Shown here piece after piece: positions 3,704-45,045 of a DNA stretch of 46,185 bases. The stretch is taken from IMG/VR virus record IMGVR_UViG_3300045988_161343. One strand, written 5' to 3'. How positions within the stretch are numbered: the stretch's first letter is position 1; the number at the start of each line of letters is the position of its first letter. The notes below the pieces were generated by a model. The model did not search any database, had not been told where the DNA came from, and was given only the letters and a program-made list of their open reading frames with translations. The stretch comes from a virus. The translations under genes and the position numbers were made by a program.

Positions 3704-3975
3704 ATCTTGATGAATATCTTGACCGTGCAACTGAAATGCGAAACGAGATTGCCGCATATGATGAGAAGATAGTACGCCTTTTGGACGAAAGAGTTCAATT
3801 GGCAAAAAACTTGGTAGAACTCAAAAAAGAACATTCTCGTCCCGCATATACACCAATAGTAGAAGAAAAGAAGATAGAATATTTGAGCACTCTAACTTCT
3901 TATCCAGATTTAATCAAAATGGTATGGCCTATGATTATGGGCTATAGCCGCATCCCCTATAACGAAAGGATTTAA
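3700..3975 (+). CDS. Chorismate mutase-like (AroQ-class) protein, 91 aa
   Basis: MNLDEYLDRATEMRNEIAAYDEKIVRLLDERVQLAKNLVELKK...RP...EEKKIEYL follows the AroQ helix pattern (L..LR..ID.ID..I..LL.ER..L....K). Size is typical of AroQ. Confidence 0.5.
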   Translation: MNLDEYLDRATEMRNEIAAYDEKIVRLLDERVQLAKNLVELKKEHSRPAYTPIVEEKKIEYLSTLTSYPDLIKMVWPMIMGYSRIPYNERI

Positions 3976-4155: not shown

Positions 4156-5505
4156 ATGGATATTAATCACTGTGGTTATATTGTAAAAGTTAAAGAACTG
4201 CGGGCACACCCTAATGCAGACAAGCTCTACATCGCAACTTTCTTCGGCAATGATACTTGCGTTTCCATTGATACGCAGGTTGGCGATATTGGTGTCTACT
4301 TCCCCTGCGACCTCCAGCTTTCCCTCGAATTTTGCATCGCCAATCATCTGTGCCGCAAGCTTCCCGATGGGACTGCTGACACTGGTTATATGGAAGTAGA
4401 TAAGCGTAATATTACTGCTATCAGACTGCGTGGCGAACGTTCCGATGGTCTGTATCTGCCGATTAGCTGTTTCAATTATTGCTATGACGATAATGCAAGT
4501 GCTTATCTAAAGGTGGGCGACATTATTAACGAAGTTAATGGTCATCCTATCTGCAATAAGTATATTCCGCGTACTAGAAAGCAGAATAATACCAATAACT
4601 CTAATGTGAGCAAGACTCGCAAGCATAAGGATCCGATTGCTCCTCTGTTCAAAGAGCATATTGATACTGCCCAGCTTGCTTATAACCTTAATGCATTCAA
4701 GCCTGGCGACCTTATTGAAATTACTCGTAAGCTCCATGGTACTTCTGCACGAATCGGCTATCTGCCTGTTCTCAAGGGCTATAAGCGTACTCTGTGGGAT
4801 AAGATTACTCGTAAAGATGGCAAACCTATCTATCAGTATGATTACATTGACGGCACTCGCCGCACTCTGCTAGTCAGCTATGATGGCGGCTTCTATGGTT
4901 CTAATGAATTCCGTAAGCATTTCCATGAAGCAATTAAAGGCAAGCTGCATGAAGGCGAAACCTGTTATGCTGAAATTATTGGTTTTACTGATGATGGCGT
5001 GCCGATTATGGGTTCTGTTTCCAATAAGAAAACCAACGATAAGGCATTCATTAAGCAATATGGCGATATGACTACCTTCTCTTATGGCTGCGACCCTACT
5101 GGTGTTACTGCTCCGAAGAACGATTTTTATGTTTATCGTATGACTCTAACTACTCATGATGGTTATACTGTGGAATATTCTCCTGAATATACTCGGTATC
5201 GTTGTGAACAGATGGGCGTAAAATTCGTTCCTGTTGAATGGCGTGGCTATATCCCCGAGCATCCGGCATCTGAAAATGATGATACTATCACCGCAGGCGA
5301 ATGGATTATGAATAAGGCAGAACAGTATTATGATGGTCCTGAGCCGATTGATCCGCGACATGTGCGTGAAGGCGTCGTTGTGCGTCTGGTTGATAAGCCT
5401 TCTTTCACAGCATATAAAATCAAGAATTTCTCCTTCAAGTGTATTGAAGGAATTGCGGTTGCTGATACTACTCCAGTAGATGAAACAATCGCGGAGGAAC
5501 TGTGA
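4156..5505 (+). CDS. ATP-dependent RNA ligase (Rnl2/Rnl5-like nucleotidyltransferase) with an N-terminal tRNA-binding OB (Myf/EMAP-type) domain, 449 aa
   Basis: N-terminus HPNADKLYIATFFGND...VSIDTQVGDIGV...RGERSDGLYLPISCF matches the tRNA_bind fold. Ligase motifs: I RKLHGTS (KxHG), IV EGVVVR, V YKIKN. Confidence 0.7.
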   Translation: MDINHCGYIVKVKELRAHPNADKLYIATFFGNDTCVSIDTQVGDIGVYFPCDLQLSLEFCIANHLCRKLPDGTADTGYMEVDKRNITAIRLRGERSDGLYLPISCFNYCYDDNASAYLKVGDIINEVNGHPICNKYIPRTRKQNNTNNSNVSKTRKHKDPIAPLFKEHIDTAQLAYNLNAFKPGDLIEITRKLHGTSARIGYLPVLKGYKRTLWDKITRKDGKPIYQYDYIDGTRRTLLVSYDGGFYGSNEFRKHFHEAIKGKLHEGETCYAEIIGFTDDGVPIMGSVSNKKTNDKAFIKQYGDMTTFSYGCDPTGVTAPKNDFYVYRMTLTTHDGYTVEYSPEYTRYRCEQMGVKFVPVEWRGYIPEHPASENDDTITAGEWIMNKAEQYYDGPEPIDPRHVREGVVVRLVDKPSFTAYKIKNFSFKCIEGIAVADTTPVDETIAEEL

Positions 5506-15318: not shown

Positions 15319-15736
15319 CATGAGTAAGGTAATGTCTGGTCCAGGCAATCCTTTTGTATTTAATCAAATGGATTTTTTAATGGGTCGTATTAAAAAAGAA
15401 GACACATTAAATAAATACCATGCGCTACTTAAATCGGGTAGAGTTATTCTTGAAGACTATTGGTGTTGGCATGATCATAAATGGTATAAAGCATTAATTA
15501 AATGCCTTAACGATTTTTATATTGTAATTACTACTGAAGAAGATGTAATTAGTATAGAAAGAATAGAAAATCCAACAGTAGATTCTATCTATATGGAATA
15601 TATATTGGCAAGTAGAATGAGAGGAGATGAAATTGATGGCGACTCTATATATGATGTGCGGCTTGAGTGCAAATGGAAAGACTACATTCGCGAAATCCTT
15701 CGCAAAGATGAATCACATCCGATATGTAAACCCTGA
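15305..15736 (+). CDS. Hypothetical protein, 143 aa
   Basis: ORF track. Confidence 0.45.
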   Translation: MEEFNMSKVMSGPGNPFVFNQMDFLMGRIKKEDTLNKYHALLKSGRVILEDYWCWHDHKWYKALIKCLNDFYIVITTEEDVISIERIENPTVDSIYMEYILASRMRGDEIDGDSIYDVRLECKWKDYIREILRKDESHPICKP

Positions 15737-16172
15737 TGAATTGTATGCTGTCTTTAATGGTGATGAATGCAACCGTAGTCATAAGTTCGAAGTTTGGCAG
15801 ACATTGTATCAGATTGTGCATTGTGCAGAACTGGATGGTGTAGATATTATTATTGACACTAACTGTTTGACTCTTGGACAGAGAGAAGAAATCAGAAGCC
15901 GTTTCCCCCATTTCGATAGTTATCAGCTTATGGTTATTATCGCCAGCGTAGAAAATTCAAAGGAATGGAACTCCAAGAGACATAGAGTAGTGCCGCAGCA
16001 GGAACTTGAACGGCAGGCACGTATTGTAGACTGGCCTAATTTGACTGACCATTATAATGGTTGGAATAATATTAGATATTATTACAATGATGGTTCTCTG
16101 TTTACTAAATATCGTGAAATCTATGATGGCGAAGACCATGACTTGCGACAGGAGAAGGAGGATAATAAATAA
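15636..16172 (+). CDS. P-loop kinase, polynucleotide-kinase-like (AAA_33/Pnk kinase family), about 178 aa
   Basis: Walker A CGLSANGKTTFAK close to the N-terminus, then D..TN..L...R pattern. Start is ATG 15636 (SD AGGAGA) or ATG 15651. Confidence 0.5.
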   Translation: MATLYMMCGLSANGKTTFAKSFAKMNHIRYVNPDELYAVFNGDECNRSHKFEVWQTLYQIVHCAELDGVDIIIDTNCLTLGQREEIRSRFPHFDSYQLMVIIASVENSKEWNSKRHRVVPQQELERQARIVDWPNLTDHYNGWNNIRYYYNDGSLFTKYREIYDGEDHDLRQEKEDNK

Positions 16173-22111: not shown

Positions 22112-22328
22112 ACTGGTTGAAAAAACTGATTGGAATAAATATCATAAAGAAGATATTCTCGATTTGGTTAAAGAGCATCCTGAACTTCTGAATATGACAC
22201 CTGTTCAGCTTCGTACCAGAGCCAGAGATTTGGATTGGGATGCTGATGGATATATGAATAAGGTTAATAGCCTTGAAAATGAAGCGTCTTTGACTAGAGA
22301 TTTAATTGAAATCATGTATGGAGAGTGA
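22089..22328 (+). CDS. Hypothetical protein, 79 aa
   Basis: ATG 22089 in frame with track ORF 21930; the earlier part overlaps the upstream gene. Confidence 0.4.
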   Translation: MNIAELIKLVEKTDWNKYHKEDILDLVKEHPELLNMTPVQLRTRARDLDWDADGYMNKVNSLENEASLTRDLIEIMYGE

Positions 22329-22333
22329 TAATT

Positions 22334-23140
22334 ATGAATTACCATTCAGATAAATGGGTTATGGATAAGGTAGAAACTCATTTAGAAGCAGCTAATGTTA
22401 AAGGAGAAAATTGGGTTAGTTTAATGGCTTATGGTAGCCAGAACTATGGTCTTGATACTCAATCGTCTGATGTAGATACCCGACTTATTGTTCTTCCTTC
22501 ATTTGAAGATATTGTACTAAATAAGAAGCCAGTATCTTATACCAAGATTCTTCCTAATGATGAACACATTGATTTTAAAGATATTCGTTTGTTCATTGAT
22601 TGTTTGAAGAAACAGAATATGGCATATCTTGAATGTATCTTCACACCTTATAAAATGGCATCAAGCGTGTATTGGAATGAGTGGCAGGTACTGCTTAATG
22701 AGCGTGAAGCTATTGCACGTTATAATCCTTACAAGGCAGTTAAGACAATGAAGGGTATTGCTATGGAAAAATATCATGCAATGGAACATAGATATCCTAC
22801 TAAAACTCATCTGATTGATACATATGGTTATGATAGTAAGCAGCTTATGCATTTGCTTCGTATTGAACAGTATCTTGGACGTTATATTGATGGGGTTAAA
22901 TATGCAGATTGCCTTCAGGCTCCAATGGGTGATTATCTTCTTGATGTAAAAAATTATCACTATGATCTTGAAACTGCACGAATTATAGCAAATACTGCTA
23001 TTAATAATATTACAAGAGTAGCTGATGATTATTGTTCTAAGACCAAGGATGAAGGTAATGAAGAACTTGAAGATTTTATGAATAAGATTGTTTATCTTAC
23101 TATGAAAAAAAGAATTGTAAAGGAAATGTTAAATGTCTGA
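22334..23140 (+). CDS. Pol-beta-superfamily nucleotidyltransferase, about 268 aa
   Basis: GSQNYGLDTQSSDVDTRLIV fits the hG[GS]x9-13D.[DE] NTase signature. Confidence 0.5.
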   Translation: MNYHSDKWVMDKVETHLEAANVKGENWVSLMAYGSQNYGLDTQSSDVDTRLIVLPSFEDIVLNKKPVSYTKILPNDEHIDFKDIRLFIDCLKKQNMAYLECIFTPYKMASSVYWNEWQVLLNEREAIARYNPYKAVKTMKGIAMEKYHAMEHRYPTKTHLIDTYGYDSKQLMHLLRIEQYLGRYIDGVKYADCLQAPMGDYLLDVKNYHYDLETARIIANTAINNITRVADDYCSKTKDEGNEELEDFMNKIVYLTMKKRIVKEMLNV

Positions 23141-23337: not shown

Positions 23338-24117
23338 ATGTTCAAGGACTATCTGATTAGAGGCGATTGTCATGGTGATTTCACATGGCTTAATGCAAGA
23401 ATGTTTAGAATTTTAAATCCAAAAGACTATGCAATTATTATCCTTGGAGACTGCGGTTTTAATACTGGTAGTGCATTCAGAGATAATATGAAGAAAGAAT
23501 ATGCAAGCCAGTTTGGATATTTTATTTATTGCGTGCATGGCAATCATGAAGTACGTCCTGAAAATGTTGAAGGTATAGAGCGTATTTGGGATAGCAATGT
23601 TCAGGCTAATGTATGGTATGAGCCGACTCACCCTCTGATTAGATATTTTGATAATTACGGGATTTATTATCTTAAAACCGAAGATAGAGAATATCGTACA
23701 TTAGTTATTGGTGGTGCTTATTCTGTTGATAAATATTATCGTCTTAAAAACAATCTGCTTTGGTGGGAAGATGAACAATTAAGTGATAAAGAAAAAGTTG
23801 ATGCTGAAATGCTTATTCGACAAACTAATAAGCATTTTGATCTTGTACTATCACACACCTGCCCTTATTCTCTTAGGCCAGTTGATAAATTTCTTTCAGT
23901 AGTAGATCAATCTACTGTAGATACCTCTATGGAAGAATGGCTTGAAGAAATTAAGAATATGATTACATATGATGTATGGCTCTTTGGTCATTATCATTGT
24001 GATAGATTTATTAATAAGCATAATATTATCTTTTTTAATTGTATTGACCCTTTGGAGGATATTTTTCTCTGGCATGATAAAATGGATGATGCTGTAAATA
24101 ATATTGACCGCTTTTAA
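23338..24117 (+). CDS. Calcineurin-like metallophosphoesterase, 259 aa
   Basis: GDCHGD ... ILGDCGFN ... VHGNHE motifs. Confidence 0.6.
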   Translation: MFKDYLIRGDCHGDFTWLNARMFRILNPKDYAIIILGDCGFNTGSAFRDNMKKEYASQFGYFIYCVHGNHEVRPENVEGIERIWDSNVQANVWYEPTHPLIRYFDNYGIYYLKTEDREYRTLVIGGAYSVDKYYRLKNNLLWWEDEQLSDKEKVDAEMLIRQTNKHFDLVLSHTCPYSLRPVDKFLSVVDQSTVDTSMEEWLEEIKNMITYDVWLFGHYHCDRFINKHNIIFFNCIDPLEDIFLWHDKMDDAVNNIDRF

Positions 24118-31686: not shown

Positions 31687-33013
31687 AATAAGCCACATTC
31701 CTGAAGAATTTTCTGATTTTATAGGTCGTTTATATCCTGAAGATTGTTTAAATTCTTAGTCTGTATTTACATTAACATTTTAGGTTACAGATGATTGTTG
31801 TTTAAATTGTACTTATTGTTATCAAGGGCATAAAGGTAAACATAAATTATCTTTTGAAACAGCTAAACAGATGATTGATTAGATATTAACCAGAGATAAT
31901 AAAATTATTGGTTATATTGATTCTTATAAAATACCAGGAGTAATAATAGAATTTATAGGTGGAGAGCCATTTTTAGAAATTGAATTAATTGATTAGATTA
32001 CTGATTATTTTATTAATAAAATGATTGAATTGCGGCATCCTTGGGCTACTAAATATAAAATTTCAATTAGTTCTAATGGTATTTTATATTTTGAACAAAA
32101 AGTACAAGAGTATATTAAAAAAAATAATGAAAATTTAAGTTTATCAATTTCTATTGATGGAAATAAAAAATTACATGACGCTTGTAGAGTTTTCCCTGAT
32201 GGTAGTGGTAGTTATGATAAAGCATTGTCTGCCGCATTACATTATAGCCATAATTATAATAAATGGATTGGGAGTAAAATGACTATCTCTCCATTTAATA
32301 TAGATTATTTATATGACGCTGTTTTAGAAATGATAAACAATGGTTATAGTCAAATCAATCTAAATTGTGTGTATGAAAAAGGTTGGGAACTTAACCATGC
32401 CACTACATTATATTATTAGTTAAAAAAAATTGCTGATTATTTATTAAATAATGATTTGTGGGATAAAGTTTATTTATCTATTTTTTATATTAATGATGGA
32501 AGTAAAAATTTATCTAATGATAATTGGTGTGGCGGGAATGGTCGTATGTTAGCCTTAAATTGGAAAGGTAAATATTATCCATGTTTACGTTATATGGAAG
32601 ATAGCATAAGTAATCAGCCAGAATATTATATTGGAGATATTTATTAGGGAATAGGCCAAGATAATTTAACCATCAATAGATTAAAAGATTTATCTGAAAT
32701 AACAGTTATTAGTCAATCTCCTCAAGAATGTTTAGATTGTGAAATTTCTGGAGGATGCTCTTGGTGTACAGCTTATAATTATCAAGAAACAGGTAATGTT
32801 AATAAAAGAGTTACTTATATTTGTGATATGCATTATGCTACAGTTCTAGCTTCTTTATATTATTTAAATTCTATTTTAAAAAAAATAAACTCGAATAAAC
32901 GATTTAAATTTAATGGAGATATGGAAAAAGCATTAAAAATTATCTCTTAGGATGAATATAATATAATAAAGGAGACAATGACAAATGAAAATAGGAACGA
33001 CAATAACTTCTGA
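31673..33013 (+). CDS. Radical SAM enzyme with C-terminal SPASM/twitch domain (anSME / RiPP-maturase-like), 446 aa with about 7 in-frame TAGs; fragmented in the track
   Basis: CCLNCTYC = CxxxCxxC cluster, GGEP motif. C-terminal Cys clusters CGGNGRMLAL...YYPCLRY and CLDCEISGGCSWCT. Frame is continuous from ATG 31673 to TGA 33011-33013 only with TAG as sense. Confidence 0.65.
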
Positions 33014-33635
33014 TAGATTCAATGAATTAAAGAAAAAAATAAAGGCTGAATGTTTACGTCGTAAATATACCGGTAGTGTAAGTTCATATGGAGGGACTTC
33101 TTATGATTATACTACTTAGCCTGATAATGGAAAAGTTATTTCAAAAGAACACATAACAAAACTGGTAGAACCTATGGCGGCAATAAATATTGAAAATCAG
33201 AATGAAAATATAAATGTTATTAAAGATGATGATTTAAGTACATTAGAGGCAAAAATTACAGCTTATCAAGCTATGGGATTAACTGATTCGAATACTGGAT
33301 GTTCAGCTTATTGCACTGGATTATGTTCTACCAGTTGTAGCGAAAGTTGTGGAGTACAATGTTAGGAAACTTGTTTAGGTAGTTGTAAGAATACTTGCCA
33401 AGGAGGCTGTCAAAACACTTGCAGAGGCGGATGTCAAAGCAGTTGTAGTGGTAGCTGTAGCGGATGTAGTGGTTCTTGCTCAGGTGGATGCTATACAGGA
33501 TGTAGTGGATGCAGTGGTAGCTGTACAAGACATTGTGCTAACGATTGTACTGGATTGTGTGGAGGAAGTTGTTCAGGTTTATGTACAAGCTGTACTGGCA
33601 CATGTAGTGGCACAGGTAGAAATGAACCATTATAA
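32985..33635 (+). CDS. Cysteine-rich repeat peptide, 216 aa: ~100-aa leader followed by ~27 tandem C-x3-C units; precursor-like
   Basis: SD AAGGAGA 9 nt upstream. Core is CSAYCTGLCSTSCSESCGVQC(TAG)ETCLGSCKNTCQGGCQNTCRGGCQSSCSGSCSGCSGSCSGGCYTGCSGCSGSCTRHCANDCTGLCGGSCSGLCTSCTGTCSG; two in-frame TAGs. Confidence 0.55.
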
Positions 33636-33753: not shown

Positions 33754-34323
33754 ATGGATATTTAGATTTTATCTGTTTATGAATATTTATGTCAAAAATA
33801 TATTTTACATAAGGATATATTAAAACAATATAAAGGTATAGAATTATATAAAATTATGGAAATTCAAGATAAAATTTTTATTAATAGATATAAATTATTA
33901 TTGTAGATTATTAATAATAATTATAATTTTGATAATTAGTTAATATACACTGATTTTAATAATTTTAATTTTGAACAAAATATTAGTTATATAAATTATT
34001 GTTTAAAATTGCTATTTAATAATTTTAAAAAAATAGATAAACAATTTTGGAAAATTTTAGATTAGATTTATTTTTTAATTAATGGTAAAACTAATTTATT
34101 TTTATTGTTGGGAAATTTTTATTTGAATAAAAGTAATTTATAGCAATTTACTGAAGAAATAAAAAAAATTCCTGGAATTAAAGAATAGCTCTCTTTTAGT
34201 TATACAGCTTTAAATTTAGCTATTGAAATTGATAAAGTTGCAGAAAATAAAAATTATCTTAATGAATTAATTGAAATTATTGATAATCATTCACAAGAAA
34301 AAATTTATAAATTTGATATTTAA
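33754..34323 (+). CDS. Very AT-rich hypothetical protein, about 189 aa, with 6 in-frame TAG and no TAA or TGA
   Basis: In an AT-rich stretch, 570 nt free of TAA and TGA in one frame is unlikely by chance. The N-terminal part of track ORF 33448-33765 is in the same frame. Confidence 0.4.
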
Positions 34324-34378
34324 TAAAAATTAATATATAATATATATACAAAATAAAGAAAATAAAGACTTTAACAGC

Positions 34379-34491
34379 AAAAAATGGACAGTAAATCCGT
34401 CGCGAATGCTACGCAGGTTCGAATCCTGCCCTCCCCACCATTATATGGCGGAGGTAGGGAAGCGGTTAAACCCAGCGGAACCAAACCAAAT
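34379..34491 (+). ncRNA. Promoter-driven tRNA-like element with circularly permuted arrangement (T-arm + 3' acceptor + CCA, 6-nt linker, then 5' acceptor + D-arm), flanked by the inverted repeat AAAGACTT/AAGTCTTG
   Basis: gcaggttcgaatcctgc cctcccc a cca ttatat g gcggagg ta ggg aagcggttaaa ccc a gcgga. Acceptor strands are complementary with one C-C mismatch. The candidate anticodon stem tccgt/gcgga is split across the ends. Confidence 0.25.
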
Positions 34492-34585
34492 AAGTCTTGT
34501 TTGAATAAAATAATTATTTGATTTTTAATAAAAAATATTATATAATATTTATATAAAAAGACTTTTACAGCAACTTAAACTTTTT

Positions 34586-34660
34586 TCCGTGGTCGAATAA
34601 CTGGATAATTCATCAGAGTTAATTCTGAAAATAAGGATTCGAATTCCTTCCTTGGAGCCA
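34586..34660 (+). tRNA. tRNA-like gene with canonical acceptor, D and T arms, CCA, and a 6-nt anticodon loop (gTTAat); own promoter, flanked by AAAAGACTTTT/AAAAGTCTT inverted repeats
   Basis: tccgtgg tc gaat aactggata attc a tcaga gttaat tctga aaat aagga ttcgaat tcctt ccttgga g cca. Confidence 0.35.
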
Positions 34661-34742
34661 AGTATAAAAAGTCTTGGGTAAATTTCTTAATTTGAAAAAA
34701 TTAAAAAAATATAATATAATATATAAGTAATCAATAAGAAAT

Positions 34743-34891
34743 CAAATAAATGCTCTCGTAGCTCAATTGGTCAGAGCCGGCGACTTATCCAAGATTAGTT
34801 TAAATGGCAAAATAGTCTATGCGCAAGAAAGATGTAAGTTCAAATCTAACATCTTGGGCCAAATCGCCAGATGTGGGTTCAAATCCCGACG
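34743..34891 (+). tRNA. tRNA carrying a ~73-nt tRNA-like insertion inside the anticodon loop; anticodon after excision is ambiguous (UAU, UAA or CAA depending on junction)
   Basis: Outer: gctctcg ta gctc aattggtca gagc c ggcga cttat[...]aa tcgcc agat gtggg ttcaaat cccga cgggagc a cca. Insert 34780-34852 is ccaagat...gtaag ttcaaat ctaac atcttgg g cca (acceptor-like stem + T-arm + CCA). Confidence 0.45.
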
Positions 34892-34926
34892 GGAGCACCA
34901 TATTCCAATAGAAAGGAATTAAAATA

Positions 34927-35166
34927 ATGAAGTTGACAAATATTAAGCAGGTTGAAGATTTTATCGCAGCAGTTAATCGCGCACATAGTAATGTATGGCT
35001 GGTTAGTCCACAAGGTGATAGATATAATATGAAATCTGCACTTTCACAGTATATCGCGCTTGGCGCATTACTTGGTCAGCATGGTGATGAATTGGAACTT
35101 TTCTGTGATAGTAAGCAAGATGAAGGTTTGTTTATTGAATTTTTTGTTCGTCACCCTGAAGTTTAA
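34927..35166 (+). CDS. Small hypothetical protein inside the tRNA array, 79 aa
   Basis: ORF track; SD AAAGGAATTAAAATA ATG. Confidence 0.45.
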   Translation: MKLTNIKQVEDFIAAVNRAHSNVWLVSPQGDRYNMKSALSQYIALGALLGQHGDELELFCDSKQDEGLFIEFFVRHPEV

Positions 35167-35312: not shown

Positions 35313-35390
35313 ATTGGTCTTATACATGGGGTTTCCGATTTGAACTAGGCAGATTAGTCACCTGCCGTTGGCAATAGACCAATTAAAAAT
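35313..35390 (+). ncRNA. Structured ~76-nt element closed by a 9-bp stem (AATTGGTCT/AGACCAATT) with an internal ggcag-attagtcac-ctgcc hairpin; not a canonical tRNA
   Basis: Immediately 3' of tRNA-Phe. Perfect 9-bp terminal helix. Function unknown. Confidence 0.25.
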
Positions 35391-35563
35391 AAACTGAGGC
35401 AAAGGGAAATCGGGTTTTAATGTATAGCTATAAAGAAATTTTATAGTTAGCTATGATGAACTTCATAGCAAAATCCTCTTGTAATCAAGCTAATTGGGAG
35501 AGGGGTAGCGCGGGAACGGGGAGAAGCGCGCTATAAAAGGTGAAATACTTCTTTCCACCATAT

Positions 35564-35792: not shown

Positions 35793-36142
35793 TAATTAAA
35801 GCTGGGAAATAATAGTCGCCCATAACTAATTATTTAATATAGGACTATTATTAAAGGTTATTTAAGTTAAAGAAACGCGGTTGAAGTTATTACTTACTTG
35901 ATTATAAAATAACATGACCGCAAGACGAGTGTTTGAAGCTTGTCTATAAACAAATTCTTCATATGTTGTCTTTTTATACTTACTCTTTGGTTGTTTCTTG
36001 ACATATAAGTAAAAACGGAAAGGGAGTTAAAGGTTTAGCTATAAAACCGGTTTGTTTTTAATAAGATTTTTAAAATTAGGTGACAAAATCTTATTTGAGT
36101 GATGCTGCTCAAGAGGGTCCGGAACCTCTAAAATGCGTATAT

Positions 36143-36275
36143 GCGCCAGTGGCCAAGTGGTATGGCACCTGCCTTTGTGGGATTGATGTAAGTAGCATTT
36201 TAATGTATTGGTTCAAATCCAATATTCCGCACCATAAGCAGGGCAACGCGGGTTCGATCCCCGCCTGGCGCACCA
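36143..36275 (+). tRNA. tRNA with Gln-like D-arm carrying a 58-nt tRNA-like insertion in the anticodon loop; the residual loop could read UUU, UUG, UAU or CAU depending on junction
   Basis: Outer: gcgccag tg gcc aagtggtat ggc a cctgc cttt[...]taa gcagg gcaac gcggg ttcgatc cccgc ctggcgc a cca. Insert 36177-36234 is gtgggat tg atg-taagtag-cat tttaatgt attgg ttcaaat ccaat attccgc a cca. Confidence 0.45.
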
Positions 36276-36596
36276 GGTCAAGTTTGAGAAATTTCATAGA
36301 GCATCGCTGACGTTAAATGGTTCTTATATGAAAACGCGCAATTAGTATAAGATAGCAAAATTCTCGTAGTTCATCCATTAGAGAACCTTAAAGAGTAATG
36401 GAATAAGATTATATCATGAGAAATTATGTATATAGTTTTATTTAATTTGGTGTTGAACCAAATATTGTGAAATTCAAGCGAGTCTACCTTATTAGCCCTA
36501 CTGTAATAGCCAGTCTAATATGCCCTCCATACCCAGTGAGGATTTTTATAAAAGTCTATTTAATTTTTCTTGGCAGCTTAATTAAATAGACTATAT

Positions 36597-37247: not shown

Positions 37248-37321
37248 GGGGACATAGTTTATGGTAGGAAAACGTTGAATTTAATTCAAAATCGAGGGTG
37301 CAATTCCCTCTGGCTCCACCA
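37248..37321 (+). tRNA. Atypical tRNA. The anticodon arm folds either as 5 bp + 5-nt loop or 4 bp + 7-nt loop ATTTAAT (anticodon UUA, ochre-type); assignment unresolved
   Basis: ggggaca ta gttt atggtagg aaac g ttgaa tttaa ttcaa aatc gaggg tgcaatt ccctc tggctcc a cca. One A-G mismatch in the acceptor. Confidence 0.35.
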
Positions 37322-37446
37322 TTTATGAAAGACAATACAGCAATTATAAATTTGCTTTGGGAGCCGTGTGTTGTAGGTTCGAGTCCTACTGTCTGGTCGA
37401 AGATCGGATATAGCGTAATTGGTAGCGCAACGTATAAAAATTGTCT

Positions 37447-37519
37447 TGTTAATATTGCGGGATCGTCAAGTGGTTAAGACACCAGCCTCATAAACTGGTT
37501 ATCATGGGTTCGAATCCCA
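37447..37519 (+). tRNA. tRNA-Met/Ile2-type (anticodon CAU), no encoded CCA
   Basis: tgcggga tc gtc aagtggttaa gac a ccagc ctcataa actgg ttatc atggg ttcgaat cccac tcccgca a. 31-39 is a C-A mismatch. Confidence 0.6.
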
Positions 37520-37729
37520 CTCCCGCAAGAGATACATTAATCAAGCCTCCACGGGGCGTATCTTGGGTAATGCTAATTGATTAAATGAGTATAATTAATA
37601 ATGTTTTATGAAAAGCCCACACAGCAACTTTTAATAGGATAAATAAGAAATTCTGCAAAAATTTTTTAGAGTTGGTTCAAATCCAGCAAATGATTTTAGG
37701 GCTTTGTTAAAATTGTTAAGGAGAAAATA

Positions 37730-38256: not shown

Positions 38257-38659
38257 GCGTTATCAAGTAAGAGCCTTCCCGTGGCGATGATGTTTAAACT
38301 AATCTTACATTAACATACCCCTACTTTCGTATAATACGGTTAAACCTTGTCGAGGGCAAAGACAACAAGGTATTCCTTTCCGCCCCTCATATATTAAGAC
38401 TCATTTTCAGCAAACTTTTGCCTACAAAGGCTCTACAATACTTACTTATCAAATAATAGATGAAAAAGTATAATAAAGAAAATAAAGTATATTTTGAAAA
38501 GTTTTTTCTTTTTAGCTGGTTTAGTAAGCTAAATTCCGCGTTTTTATTTTGGCTTTTCAATGAGTCTTGTTTTTAAAATAATTGGTATCGCTAAGCTTCA
38601 TGGTAATTGTGGCGTATTTAAATCATAGATAGTTAAGGGTCTATAGCCAATTATGATAT

Positions 38660-40188: not shown

Positions 40189-40704
40189 ATGGCTGATATC
40201 ATCAAGTTCAAAAGAGGTCGATCAACTACATGGCGTGAAAAGAACTTATTGCTTAAGGATGGCGAGCCTGGATTTGAATTAGATACTCATAAACTGAAAA
40301 TTGGTGATGGTAAAACCTTATGGAATGATTTACCATATATCGGTGGCGAAAGTGGTACAATTGATCTTCCTGATAATGTAATGGAATTTTTAGGCACAGT
40401 TGATGCACTTCCAGCTACTGCTGAAGATGGAGAAATGTGTATTTATGATGGTAAATTATATATTTACGATGGTAAATGGACAACTACAGAAACTTCTTCT
40501 TCAGCACAAAATTCTTTCAATTCTTTAGTAGATGCAATTAACTATATTACTTAGCATAATTGTGTTGGTCAAATTGTATCTATTTTTTAGAATAATAAAT
40601 GGTTGCCTTATATTGTAGATGTAAATAATAATCTTGTACCTATTCAATATGGAGAAGATCATTATGATATTCTTAATGGCGGCAACGCAAATACTCTTAA
40701 TTAA
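40189..40704 (+). CDS. Tail fibre paralog with the same N-terminal domain, 171 aa, two in-frame TAGs
   Basis: MADIIKFKRGRSTTWREKN...ELDTHKLKIGDGKTLWNDL. Continues through TAG at 40552 and 40588 to TAA at 40702-40704. Confidence 0.55.
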
Positions 40705-40726: not shown

Positions 40727-41950
40727 ATGGCTGAAAATATTCTTAATACTCGCATTCAAGTATTAAATGATACGGCTGAAGCTCTTAAAGCAAAAGGTAG
40801 TGCAGTCCCAAAAGCTGGTGAAATTGTTTACGAGAACGATACTCGTAAAATGAAAATCGGTGATGGTACTACTACTCTTGAAAACTTAAAATATTTTGGT
40901 GGCGAAGCCGCTCAAAATTTTGAAGCTATTCCAACAGGTGAAGAAACTGACGTTCAGGCTATTACTCGTATTGTAGCTTCTGCAGAACTTCACAATGGCG
41001 ATACTGCTATTGTAAAGCGTGTTATTACTGGCGATAAGACTTCTTATACTGCTTACGTATATGACGGTGAATGGAAAGCTATGGATGGCAATTATCGTGC
41101 TGATAATGTTTATTTTGATGATGACATTACTTATACTGTTGCTATTGGCACTTTAGCTAAACCATCTGGTTCTGCTAAATTTGCAGCTAAAGGTAAGAGC
41201 GTTGAACAGGTCCTTTCTACCTTAATGGCCAAGGAAGCTAATCCTTCTAAGTCTGATCCTGCTGTTAGTTTCAGCTCTACTAGCGGACTTGGTACATTTG
41301 AAATTGGCACGAAGAAGAATTTAACATATACAGCAGCTCTATCTGCTGGTAGTTATACTTATGGTCCAGCTACTGGTATTACAGCTCAGAGTTGGAGTGT
41401 AAAATGCACTGGTGTTGAAGATGTCCTTGCTACTGCTACTGGTTCTTTCGATAATGTTGTTGCTGAAGCAACAGCTAAAAAAATTACTGCAACCGCAACT
41501 TATGGCGACGGCACTATTCCTAAGACCAATCTAGGTAATTCTTATCCTGCTAGCCAGATTAAGGCAGGCTCAGCATCTAAAGATAGCAATGTCCTTTAGG
41601 GTGTCCGTCATATGTTCTATGGTCCTATAACTACTGATGCAGCTCTTGATAGTACTACTATTCGTGGATTAAAACATGAAGCTGCTAGTAAAAAGCCTAT
41701 TACTACATTTGGTGCAGGTGCTGGAGCAAAGAAAGTTGTTATTGCTTGTCCTGCTGGATATAATGTAAGTAAGGTTCTTATGCCTAGTGCTATGAATGCT
41801 GATGCTACTGCTAATTTTGTAAAGCAAGCTGGTACTGTTAATGTTGAGGGCGCTGAAGGATATACTGCAGCTCCTTATACTGTTTGGGTATATTAGCCTG
41901 CTGCAATTGATAGTACTGAAACTTATGCTGTCACAATTGGTTAATTTATA
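40727..41950 (+). CDS. Tail fibre protein, 407 aa, two in-frame TAGs (joins track ORFs 40727 and 41612)
   Basis: N-terminal ...GEIVYENDTRKMKIGDGTTTLENL domain; same frame through TAG 41597 and TAG 41894 to TAA 41948-41950. Confidence 0.55.
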
Positions 41951-44703: not shown

Positions 44704-45045
44704 ATGGCTCAAAAAGAATTTAATACACGAATTAAATTAAAGTATGATACTTTAGATAAATGGTTAAAGAATACATCAGTTGTACTGCTTAAAGGCGAAA
44801 TTGGCTTATGCTATGTGCCGGCGATTACATCTGGTACAACGACCACAGCTCCTACTGTACTATTTAAAGTTGGTGATGGTACAACCACATGGGAAAAACT
44901 ACCTTGGGGTGCAGGGCTTGGAGCAGATGTCCCGGCATGGGCTAAGGCACCTGCAAAGCCATCTTATACCCTTGATGAAATAGGTGCTAATCCTGATACC
45001 AACTATGTAATTTTCGATTGTGGTTCTTCTACTATAAATATATAA
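44704..45045 (+). CDS. Tail fibre paralog (N-terminal anchor domain only), 113 aa
   Basis: MAQKEFNTRIKLKYDTLDKWLKNTSVVLLKGEIG...FKVGDGTTTWEKL. Confidence 0.55.
   Translation: MAQKEFNTRIKLKYDTLDKWLKNTSVVLLKGEIGLCYVPAITSGTTTTAPTVLFKVGDGTTTWEKLPWGAGLGADVPAWAKAPAKPSYTLDEIGANPDTNYVIFDCGSSTINI

Follow-up and report, generated by a model that had tools for sequence, protein, structure and literature searches.

Y-RNA-like tRNA mimics in a phage tRNA cluster, likely partners of a divergent Ro60-like protein

The virus record IMGVR_UViG_3300045988_161343 of IMG/VR (46,185 nucleotides (nt), the whole stretch analysed here and termed the window) carries in its tRNA cluster two neighbouring units, U1 and U2, whose paired 5′ and 3′ ends form a closing stem of 7–9 base pairs (bp) around a tRNA-like core. 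We consider it likely that both are phage Y-RNA-like tRNA mimics that belong to a divergent Ro60 system. The case is built on their sequence anatomy and covariation, their membership of a larger family, the linkage of that family to a Ro60-like gene and the Ro60-like fold of the encoded protein, and from these we infer how the RNAs might be bound, processed and used.

Two clamped units with tRNA-like cores

The window is AT-rich, phage-like DNA with every gene on the + strand, and its tRNA cluster occupies about 34.3–38.3 kb. The original prediction had described two promoter-driven units bounded by inverted repeats, and this description was borne out: each unit follows a sigma-70-like site and is enclosed by exact arms. 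The two sites are among the best + strand sigma-70-like matches of this AT-rich region, in which the total number of such matches is not above that of shuffled sequences. These sigma-70-type promoters indicate a bacterial host. The elements of the two units are as follows.

34313–34341, + strand: sigma-70-like promoter of U1 (TTGATA-17-TATAAT, 11 of 12 matches)
34364–34499, + strand: U1, a Y-RNA-like cassette that carries a circularly permuted tRNA-Tyr(GUA) as its payload
34365–34371, + strand: left arm AAGACTT of U1, which pairs with AAGTCTT (34492–34498); a conserved G follows at 34499
34374–34380, + strand: ACAGCAA of U1 in the internal loop beside the closing stem, a predicted Ro60-like binding site
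34389–34400, + strand: Tyr anticodon-loop sequence CAGTAAA of U1, then TCCGT (34396–34400)
34413–34446, + strand: T arm (34413–34429), CCTCCCC (34430–34436), A-CCA (34437–34440) and TTATAT linker (34441–34446) of U1
34447–34479, + strand: 5′ acceptor strand GCGGAGG (34448–34454), D arm (34457–34473) and GCGGA (34475–34479) of U1
34518–34546, + strand: sigma-70-like promoter of U2 (TTGATT-17-TATAAT, 10 of 12 matches)
34557–34676, + strand: U2, a Y-RNA-like cassette with exact arms at 34558–34566 and 34667–34675 (AAGACTTTT/AAAAGTCTT)
34567–34573, + strand: ACAGCAA of U2
34586–34660, + strand: tRNA-like core of U2 in normal order, with a 6-nt anticodon loop GTTAAT (34618–34623)

The starts of U1 and U2 share a 17-nt direct repeat, AAAGACTTT(A/T)ACAGCAA. 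RNAfold, put forward with the original prediction as a check, recovered both clamps (z-scores of −2.4 for U1 and −1.0 for U2), and the right arm takes U2 to 34676, beyond the end at 34670 first assigned to it.

From its 5′ side, U1 consists of a Tyr-like anticodon loop, the 3′ strand of the anticodon stem, a long variable region, the T arm, the 3′ acceptor strand, A, CCA, TTATAT, the 5′ acceptor strand, the D arm and the 5′ strand of the anticodon stem. An anticodon-like stem is formed by TCCGT (34396–34400) and GCGGA (34475–34479), and the 7-bp acceptor stem has a single C·C mismatch. ARAGORN gave no tRNA call on U1 in its native order; once the halves had been rejoined, the half after the linker preceding the half before it, it reported an 84-nt tRNA-Tyr(gta) in five of five orthologues, with the break point at position 31/32. 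In an alignment of 11 U1 orthologues, the five helices (clamp, long-range anticodon-like stem, T, acceptor and D) were paired in 95.3% of cells, and 11 pairs had changed on both sides; none of 500 shuffles did as well, and slid controls were 37–56% paired. The clamp alone was 100% paired with one compensatory change, and compensatory changes were found in three of the five pairs of the anticodon-like stem. Taken together, these data identify U1 as a circular permutation of tRNA-Tyr(GUA), and the segment order and end-formed anticodon stem that had been read from the sequence both stand. YrlA-type Y RNAs are known to have this same permuted topology (PMC4201824). The flanking repeats likewise pair and covary, as had been suspected; the further idea that they bring the ends together during tRNA processing found no support.

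Several features of U1 bear on what it might do. The sequence GUAAA (the anticodon plus positions 37–38) is invariant in all 11 orthologues, and the Tyr anticodon sequence itself may be recognized by something. Position 33 is an A in the window and a U in only 4 of the 11, and in one orthologue (L061) the acceptor hairpin is closed and contains neither CCA nor linker; both observations argue against a decoding tRNA. Between the 7-bp clamp and the anticodon stem lie asymmetric loops, one of about 24 nt and the other of about 12 nt; the 3′ loop is not conserved, and inspection of the 11-orthologue alignment revealed no bulge–helix–bulge motif. The ACCA-UUAUAU-G junction of U1 matches tRNA–tRNA junctions elsewhere in the cluster of the window. 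Two other readings of parts of U1 were discarded. A local Tyr anticodon hairpin (AUGGA/UCCGU) does not covary as a real helix would, breaking exactly where the 3′ strand varies and where the long-range helix compensates; this free-standing Tyr anticodon arm may be an alternative conformer of U1. A boxA- or nut-like antitermination site was considered for CUUUAACA, which resembles the rrn boxA; in other units the same stretch is a variable, covarying arm.

U2 is closer to a canonical tRNA in its order and further from one in its anticodon loop. ARAGORN reported no tRNA under default settings and a tRNA with a 6-nt anticodon loop at the 95% threshold, confirming the short loop noted at the outset, and a single inserted base was enough for the core to be called a normal tRNA by default. 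The Rfam tRNA model (RF00005) did not report U2. Of the marks of a canonical tRNA, a 7-nt anticodon loop and detection of the native core by default ARAGORN or RF00005 are thus both lacking. The arms and CCA had been described as textbook; this suits the near-canonical cloverleaf and needs a minor correction for the acceptor stem, in which there is one U·U mismatch and one G·U pair. In the near-identical relative L105, the CCA of U2 reads CAA.

The stem and ACAGCAA family and its Ro60-like partner

The original prediction had suggested looking for similarly flanked units, and three more, U3, U4 and U5, are present in the window. The module shared by all five, recognized by eye and then by script, consists of (A)AAG, 4–7 variable bases, 1–3 further bases and (A/U/C)CAGCAA on the 5′ side and of the complementary bases followed by CUUG on the 3′ side.

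37328–37448, + strand: U3, AAAGACAAT-ACAGCAA ... ATTGTCTTG, with a YrlA-like tRNA domain of T arm, GAA-closed acceptor hairpin and D arm
37612–37706, + strand: U4, AAAGCCC-AC-ACAGCAA ... GGGCTTTG, whose payload is a T arm only (GTTGGTTCAAATCCAGC)
38395–38569, + strand: U5, AAGACTCA-TTT-TCAGCAA ... TGAGTCTTG, with a 150-nt AT-rich payload

U3 has no promoter of its own and sits after a tRNA, and U5 is conserved in L104–L107. An exact DNA pattern scan of IMG/VR with AAAGACTTTNACAGCAA yielded 102 loci, only 11 of them true relatives; the remaining chance matches became our control set of unrelated loci. A protein-anchored search with the small open reading frame (ORF) at 34927–35166 yielded 15 syntenic loci, in which this marker is 56–99% identical. 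We counted 75 cassette instances in the window and 21 related loci, and the module is kept in phages whose marker protein is only 56–68% identical. The arms vary yet stay complementary (AAGACTT/AAGTCTT, AGACAAT/ATTGTCT, AAAGCCC/GGGCTTT, AAGACGC/GCGTCTT, AAGGCAC/GTGCCTT and others), and the closing stem covaries across about 120 units. By a rough census of the distinct units in related phages, also about 120, the payload begins with the T arm, in the permuted, YrlA-like order, in about 28; it has the normal tRNA order in about 25, is a T arm only in about 8 and lacks any T arm in about 59, so that roughly half of the payloads are not tRNA-like. Among the short payloads are several hairpins that resemble anticodon loops, with CUGUAAA and CUUUUAA each seen five times and CUGAAAA twice.

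The tRNA-like domain of U3 matches positions 23–88 of the 114 in the Rfam YrlA model (RF02553; 29 bits, E = 2.4e-4), the structure line of which has the same permuted order. Permissive cmscan searches of 34320–34700 and 37300–37720 gave this partial YrlA match and noise alone, and a self-cleaving ribozyme or another Rfam family in the flanks was rejected on those results. We also rejected a retron-like RNA, which has a1/a2 repeats and an AGC branch context: no reverse transcriptase was found in the window, and linkage to a Ro-like gene accounts better for the module.

Beyond ordinary tRNAs, matches to the DNA of cultured phages fell only in unannotated stretches. Enterococcus phage EA1 has three tandem cassettes, the middle one of which shares 73% identity with the core of U3; they have the form AAAG-stem-ACAGCAA ... 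stem-CUUG and lie directly upstream of the gene for a 510-amino-acid (aa) 'RNA-binding protein', the Ro-like gene. Rhizobium phage RHph_Y65 has a tandem array of about eight tRNA-like units, each with GUUGCGA(A), directly upstream of an annotated TROVE gene, and the last unit is 80% identical to the core of U1 over 84 nt. In Listeria phage LMTA-34 (L246, 2654–2918), three tandem units with stem and ACAGCAA, ending in CCUG rather than CUUG, again directly precede the Ro-like gene. In the transcriptome of Listeria phage CKA15, published in 2025, three unannotated RNAs from the 2 kb upstream of the gene for an Rsr-like, virion-associated protein were very abundant, and it was suggested that these may be Y RNAs (PMC12282133). 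The three ACAGCAA units of the related LMTA-34 occupy exactly this position, and the abundant RNAs probably correspond to them.

This linkage extends across the family. In IMG/VR, a search with profiles recovered over 550 loci with a DUF2828 protein, of which 80 (568 kb) were retained. A strict cassette scan of these DUF2828-centred loci found 71 units, all of them upstream on the strand of the gene and none on the opposite strand; the 91 unrelated phage loci of the control set (778 kb) gave four cassettes on one strand and two on the other. A chance origin of the cassette is thereby excluded at the level of the family. When pairing was not required, CAGCAA occurred 172 times on the + strand and 51 times on the − strand in the 221 kb upstream, and no such strand bias was seen inside or downstream of the DUF2828 gene. 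In two close relatives with near-identical U1 and U2, the same contig has the Ro-like gene on the same strand, at a distance from the marker of 43 kb in one case (L105 with L173) and of about 31 kb in the other (L103 with L165). Therefore, in the clade of the window, the RNAs sit in the tRNA cluster with their own promoters and not beside the protein gene. In L240 (ENA k141_206889), a relative of this clade, three cassettes, a normal tRNA-Tyr(gta) (2108–2194) and a tRNA(cta) (3729–3803) lie in a field of tRNAs and non-coding RNAs upstream of the Ro-like gene. Within 10001–20031 of L240, an 826-aa protein with MVP_shoulder/Vault_3 matches is encoded after that gene, ahead of NADAR, Metallophos, AAA_33, Metallophos_2 and Band_7/flotillin genes; the proximity of a TROVE-like protein, a major-vault-protein-like protein and small RNAs is reminiscent of the vault particle of eukaryotes.

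Cassette-bearing relatives encode full-length homologues of the DUF2828 protein. Pfam assigns DUF2828 and DUF7788 (with a weak VWA_2 match) to the EA1 protein and TROVE and vWA_Ro60 to the Rhizobium phage protein; its TROVE model fails to detect the DUF2828/DUF7788 partner, and PHROG 850 matches the DUF2828 proteins as well as the Rhizobium TROVE protein. Alignment with hhalign linked the end of the TROVE domain to the MIDAS region. As in Ro60 and other TROVE proteins, the AlphaFold2 model of the partner has a ring of HEAT repeats and, after it, a vWA domain that bears a MIDAS motif, and on this model the DUF2828 protein is predicted to have a Ro60-like fold. The family occurs in 698 cultured phage genomes, including mycobacteriophages and Listeria P100-like and Felix O1-like phages, and its mycobacteriophage members are annotated as 'Ro-like RNA binding protein'.

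These results also bear on a reading in which the units have no independent function and are either tRNA pseudogenes in decay or hairpins for termination or processing. Terminator hairpins or degenerate pseudogenes with no conserved permuted topology were what the original prediction had named as its refutation. ARAGORN and the Rfam tRNA model give no call on the native units, the z-score of U2 (−0.97) is unremarkable and the CAA in L105 would suit decay. Set against this are the compensatory changes in the helices of U1 across its 11 orthologues, the retention of the module at 56–68% marker identity, the strand specificity of the linkage and the separate promoters of U1 and U2, in view of which we find this explanation scarcely credible.

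Known systems and alternative readings

The closest described RNAs are of the YrlA type (RF02553; Chen et al. 2014, PMC4201824). Like YrlA, the cassettes pair their ends into a closing stem alongside a short conserved motif on the 5′ strand; U1 and U3 have the same succession of T arm, acceptor-like stem and D arm, with the equivalent of the anticodon stem as the link to the closing stem, whereas the payload of U2 is in normal order. Several different RNAs occur in tandem in both systems, some with a T arm only (as in YrlB), and in many phages the cassettes lie upstream, on the same strand, of a Ro60-type gene. The YrlA of Mycobacterium smegmatis is cleaved in vivo by RNase P and carries CCA, and both halves stay on Rsr (PMC4201824); the sequence of U1 predicts the same combination of a 7-bp acceptor stem, RNase P cut and CCA. 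The two systems differ in the conserved motif, ACAGCAA here and GNCGAAN0-1G/CGAA in YrlA, and in the AAAG...CUUG ends of the cassettes. They also differ in the partner, here a DUF2828/DUF7788 protein that Pfam TROVE does not see; in the far greater variety of payloads here, among them normal-order tRNA-like folds, bare anticodon-loop-like hairpins and non-tRNA sequences; in the CCA and linker, which are genome-encoded in U1; and in the dispersal of the RNAs into the tRNA cluster. YrlA RNAs are encoded within about 4 kb of a Ro60 orthologue on the same strand; no such gene was found in the window, its closest relatives have one on the same strand at 31–43 kb, and in the family an upstream, same-strand position is seen in the units of the DUF2828-centred loci and in EA1, LMTA-34 and RHph_Y65. 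A phage Ro60 that binds upstream Y-like RNAs through a stem and CGAA bulge has been described for Thermus phage phiLo, with Yrl1 and Yrl2 (PMC12135203); phiLo differs from the present case in its CGAA motif and recognizable TROVE protein, and no tRNA-like payloads are described for it.

The architecture of the cassettes is thus that of a YrlA-type Y RNA, and the cassettes lack two defining features of the curated family, the GNCGAA motif and a score at the Rfam threshold. Several observations weigh against the Ro60 assignment. All five units of the window, and the family, carry (A/U/C)CAGCAA, and the canonical Ro-binding sequence is absent from them. No unit reaches the YrlA gathering score (29 bits for U3 versus 69), and U1 and U2 give no YrlA match at E ≤ 10. 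Searches by tblastn, hidden Markov models and Pfam found no Ro60-like gene in the 46-kb window, so that linkage for this phage rests on relatives in which the gene is 31–43 kb from U1 and U2, and the AlphaFold2 model of the partner is of moderate confidence. Finally, the invariance of the Tyr anticodon GUA and of A37 and A38 is not what a pure scaffold role would predict.

That invariance would also suit a reading of U1 as a genuine circularly permuted tRNA gene, the topology noted in the original prediction, with a decoding tRNA-Tyr as its product. By this route, the clamp would unite leader and trailer, a nuclease would remove both, a phage RNA ligase would seal the break between positions 31 and 32, perhaps by way of a circular intermediate, and the ACCA–linker–G junction would be opened by RNase P together with 3′ trimming. 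Four genes that make up an RNA heal-and-seal set are encoded in the window.

4156–5505, + strand: RNA ligase (PF09414 plus PHA02142 OB domain)
15627–16172, + strand: AAA_33 kinase-like protein (Pfam)
22325–23140, + strand: RlaP nucleotidyltransferase (Pfam)
23338–24117, + strand: Metallophos phosphoesterase (Pfam)

In support of such a gene, the rejoined halves form a tRNA-Tyr with a long variable arm, A73 and CCA in every orthologue submitted to ARAGORN, and no other tRNA-Tyr is called in the window. What remains of the idea is the topology, broken at 31/32; evidence against gene function comes from the scarcity of U33, from the closed, CCA-less acceptor hairpin of L061, from the absence of a bulge–helix–bulge and from the asymmetric loops, unconserved on the 3′ side, between clamp and anticodon stem. 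In addition, the same type of terminal module encloses the non-tRNA payloads that make up about half of the family, the cassettes are tightly linked by position and strand to the Ro60-like gene, the promoters are bacterial and the clade relative L240 has its normal tRNA-Tyr(gta). We therefore regard a decoding gene as improbable.

The comparison with known permuted genes leads in the same direction. Permuted tRNA genes of Cyanidioschyzon merolae and some archaea (PMC3978253) resemble U1 in placing the 3′ half upstream of the 5′ half, in the CCA or discriminator and short linker at the acceptor end and in a leader and trailer that can pair. They differ in needing a bulge–helix–bulge, the archaeal or eukaryal splicing endonuclease and a circular intermediate, and in yielding decoding tRNAs (PMC3978253); here the host is bacterial, and the flanks are a module of protein-binding type common to non-tRNA payloads. 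Neither a functional 7-nt anticodon loop with U33 nor free acceptor ends are found throughout the U1 orthologues. Two-piece tmRNA (transfer-messenger RNA) is likewise produced from a permuted gene as a two-piece RNA with a CCA-ended tRNA-like domain. It was rejected as an identity for the units: there is no tag reading frame, and the Rfam tmRNA_permuted score (15.9 bits versus a gathering score of 47) is weak and confined to the T arm and CCA.

Proposed role, neighbouring features and implications

In classical systems, the closing stem and a CGAA-type motif are the binding site for Ro60, and a further factor is held by the remainder of the Y RNA (PMC4201824, PMC12135203). By analogy, we propose that each cassette combines two modules. 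The first would be the closing stem formed by the ends (5′-AAG...N / N...CUU-G-3′) together with ACAGCAA, which lies 1–3 bases past the stem on the 5′ strand, probably single-stranded in an internal loop. This module would be the counterpart of the terminal stem and CGAA/GNCGAA through which Ro60 binds classical Y RNAs, and hence the putative binding site of the divergent phage Ro60 homologue (Pfam DUF2828 + DUF7788, PHROG 850). The second would be a variable payload, a tRNA mimic acting as the effector. In U1, this would be a permuted tRNA-Tyr whose break falls at the 5′ border of its anticodon loop, with the anticodon stem joined to the Ro-binding stem as in YrlA. Because of its 7-bp acceptor stem and encoded ACCA-UUAUAU-G junction, U1 is a likely substrate of RNase P, cleavage by which would give a two-piece, CCA-ended RNA, as with the M. 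smegmatis YrlA. In U2, the payload would be an entire tRNA-like fold that is anchored by its acceptor end and has a crippled anticodon loop of 6 nt. Such mimics would probably serve to tether or occupy host or phage tRNA-recognizing enzymes on the Ro60-like ring, as part of a phage programme of RNA repair and RNA quality control. RNA repair systems in which Rot/TROVE proteins have tRNA-like partners were reportedly described by Burroughs and Aravind in 2016 (cited through PMC7824862).

A different use of the same payloads requires no Ro-like protein. The cassettes could be stand-alone decoys or sponges that offer a tRNA body or an anticodon loop (of the Tyr, Lys, Phe or another type) as a target for anticodon nucleases of the host or for other tRNA-targeting defences, with the stem serving only to protect the ends. 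This would fit the recurrence of the anticodon-loop-like hairpins, the invariant Tyr anticodon of U1, the strong promoters of U1 and U2, the distance of the Ro-like gene in the clade of the window and the RNA repair genes, which are typical of tRNA-cleavage conflicts (PMC7824862). It leaves unexplained the conserved ACAGCAA and AAAG/CUUG ends and the fact that in many phages the cassettes lie strictly upstream of the Ro60-like gene and on its strand, and about half of the payloads have no tRNA feature to show. As a replacement for the Ro60-based explanation, stand-alone decoys seem to us quite unlikely; a decoy role is compatible with that explanation as the function of the payload.

The Ro60-based explanation might be carried a step further, and we do so tentatively, rating this extension as rather doubtful. 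The cassette would be a modular display scaffold with which the Ro60-like particle exhibits mimics of tRNAs whose anticodon loop is broken or exposed; these would either capture anticodon nucleases of the host or act as a nucleus for the heal-and-seal enzymes of the phage. If this were true, the mimics would be Tyr GUA in U1 and Lys, Phe and Tyr loops in other units; U1 cut by RNase P would be a two-piece, CCA-ended, possibly tyrosylated tRNA-Tyr mimic on the ring; and the L240 neighbourhood (MVP-shoulder/vault-like, Band-7, NADAR, kinase and phosphoesterases) would amount to a phage 'vault-like' RNA-repair particle.

Elsewhere in the tRNA cluster, two tRNA genes (34752–34900 and 36143–36275) are split in the anticodon loop by CCA-ended tRNA-like inserts of 73 nt and 58 nt. 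The outer, interrupted tRNAs are called by ARAGORN with introns allowed and by the Rfam tRNA model; the splice register is ambiguous, giving Ile-UAU or Trp-CCA for the first and Lys-UUU or Met-CAU for the second. The nested arrangement is kept in L103 and L105–L107, the same insert lies in a different outer tRNA in L104, and L111/L112 have a different nested pair (4530–4668). The acceptor stem of the insert covaries (CCAAGAT/ATCTTGG versus CCAAAAT/ATTTTGG). Splicing of the outer tRNA could proceed by RNase P cleavage and 3′ processing of the insert and then by the action of the phage RNA ligase. Our search of the literature found no description of tRNAs nested in tRNAs.

Further along, 37529–37584 is a weak match to the F. 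prausnitzii hepatitis delta virus (HDV)-like ribozyme (20.7 bits, gathering score 44) directly after a tRNA-Met without encoded CCA; this is the position of 'theta' ribozymes, which process tRNA 3′ ends in gut phages. A tRNA at 37248–37318 is reported by Rfam (47.7 bits) and not by ARAGORN; its anticodon region, TTGA-ATTTAAT-TCAA, can be read as a UUA (ochre-suppressor-like) anticodon on a 4-bp stem. Long non-coding stretches between tRNAs (35313–35560, 35793–36140 and 36278–36596, and 2300–3560 of L240) are richer in GC than their surroundings and look structured; they have no Rfam match at E ≤ 5. Outside the cluster, ORFs at 32021–32647 and 33174–33365 resemble, by eye, a split radical-SAM/SPASM maturase and then a 63-aa Cys-rich peptide (...GCSAYCTGLCSTSCSESCGVQC); Pfam gave no match for 32021–32419. 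Three ORFs (40189–40554, 40727–41599 and 44704–45045) start with an Mtd_N (major tropism determinant N-terminal) domain and, from their sequence, probably encode tail-fibre or receptor-binding proteins.

Our literature search, the coverage of which was incomplete, found no paper that describes the ACAGCAA module or ties DUF2828 proteins to specific RNAs. Y RNAs that mimic tRNA and are carried by Ro60 rings are known, and the cassettes point to a much larger, uncatalogued branch of that system. For annotation, the lesson is that phage sequences with the look of a permuted tRNA should be tested first as Y RNAs, and the searchable signature AAAG-stem-ACAGCAA ... stem-CUUG could label many 'intergenic' stretches in phage tRNA clusters. 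The range of payloads, from an exact permuted tRNA-Tyr to bare anticodon-loop mimics, provides natural variants with which to ask what the tRNA-like module recruits.

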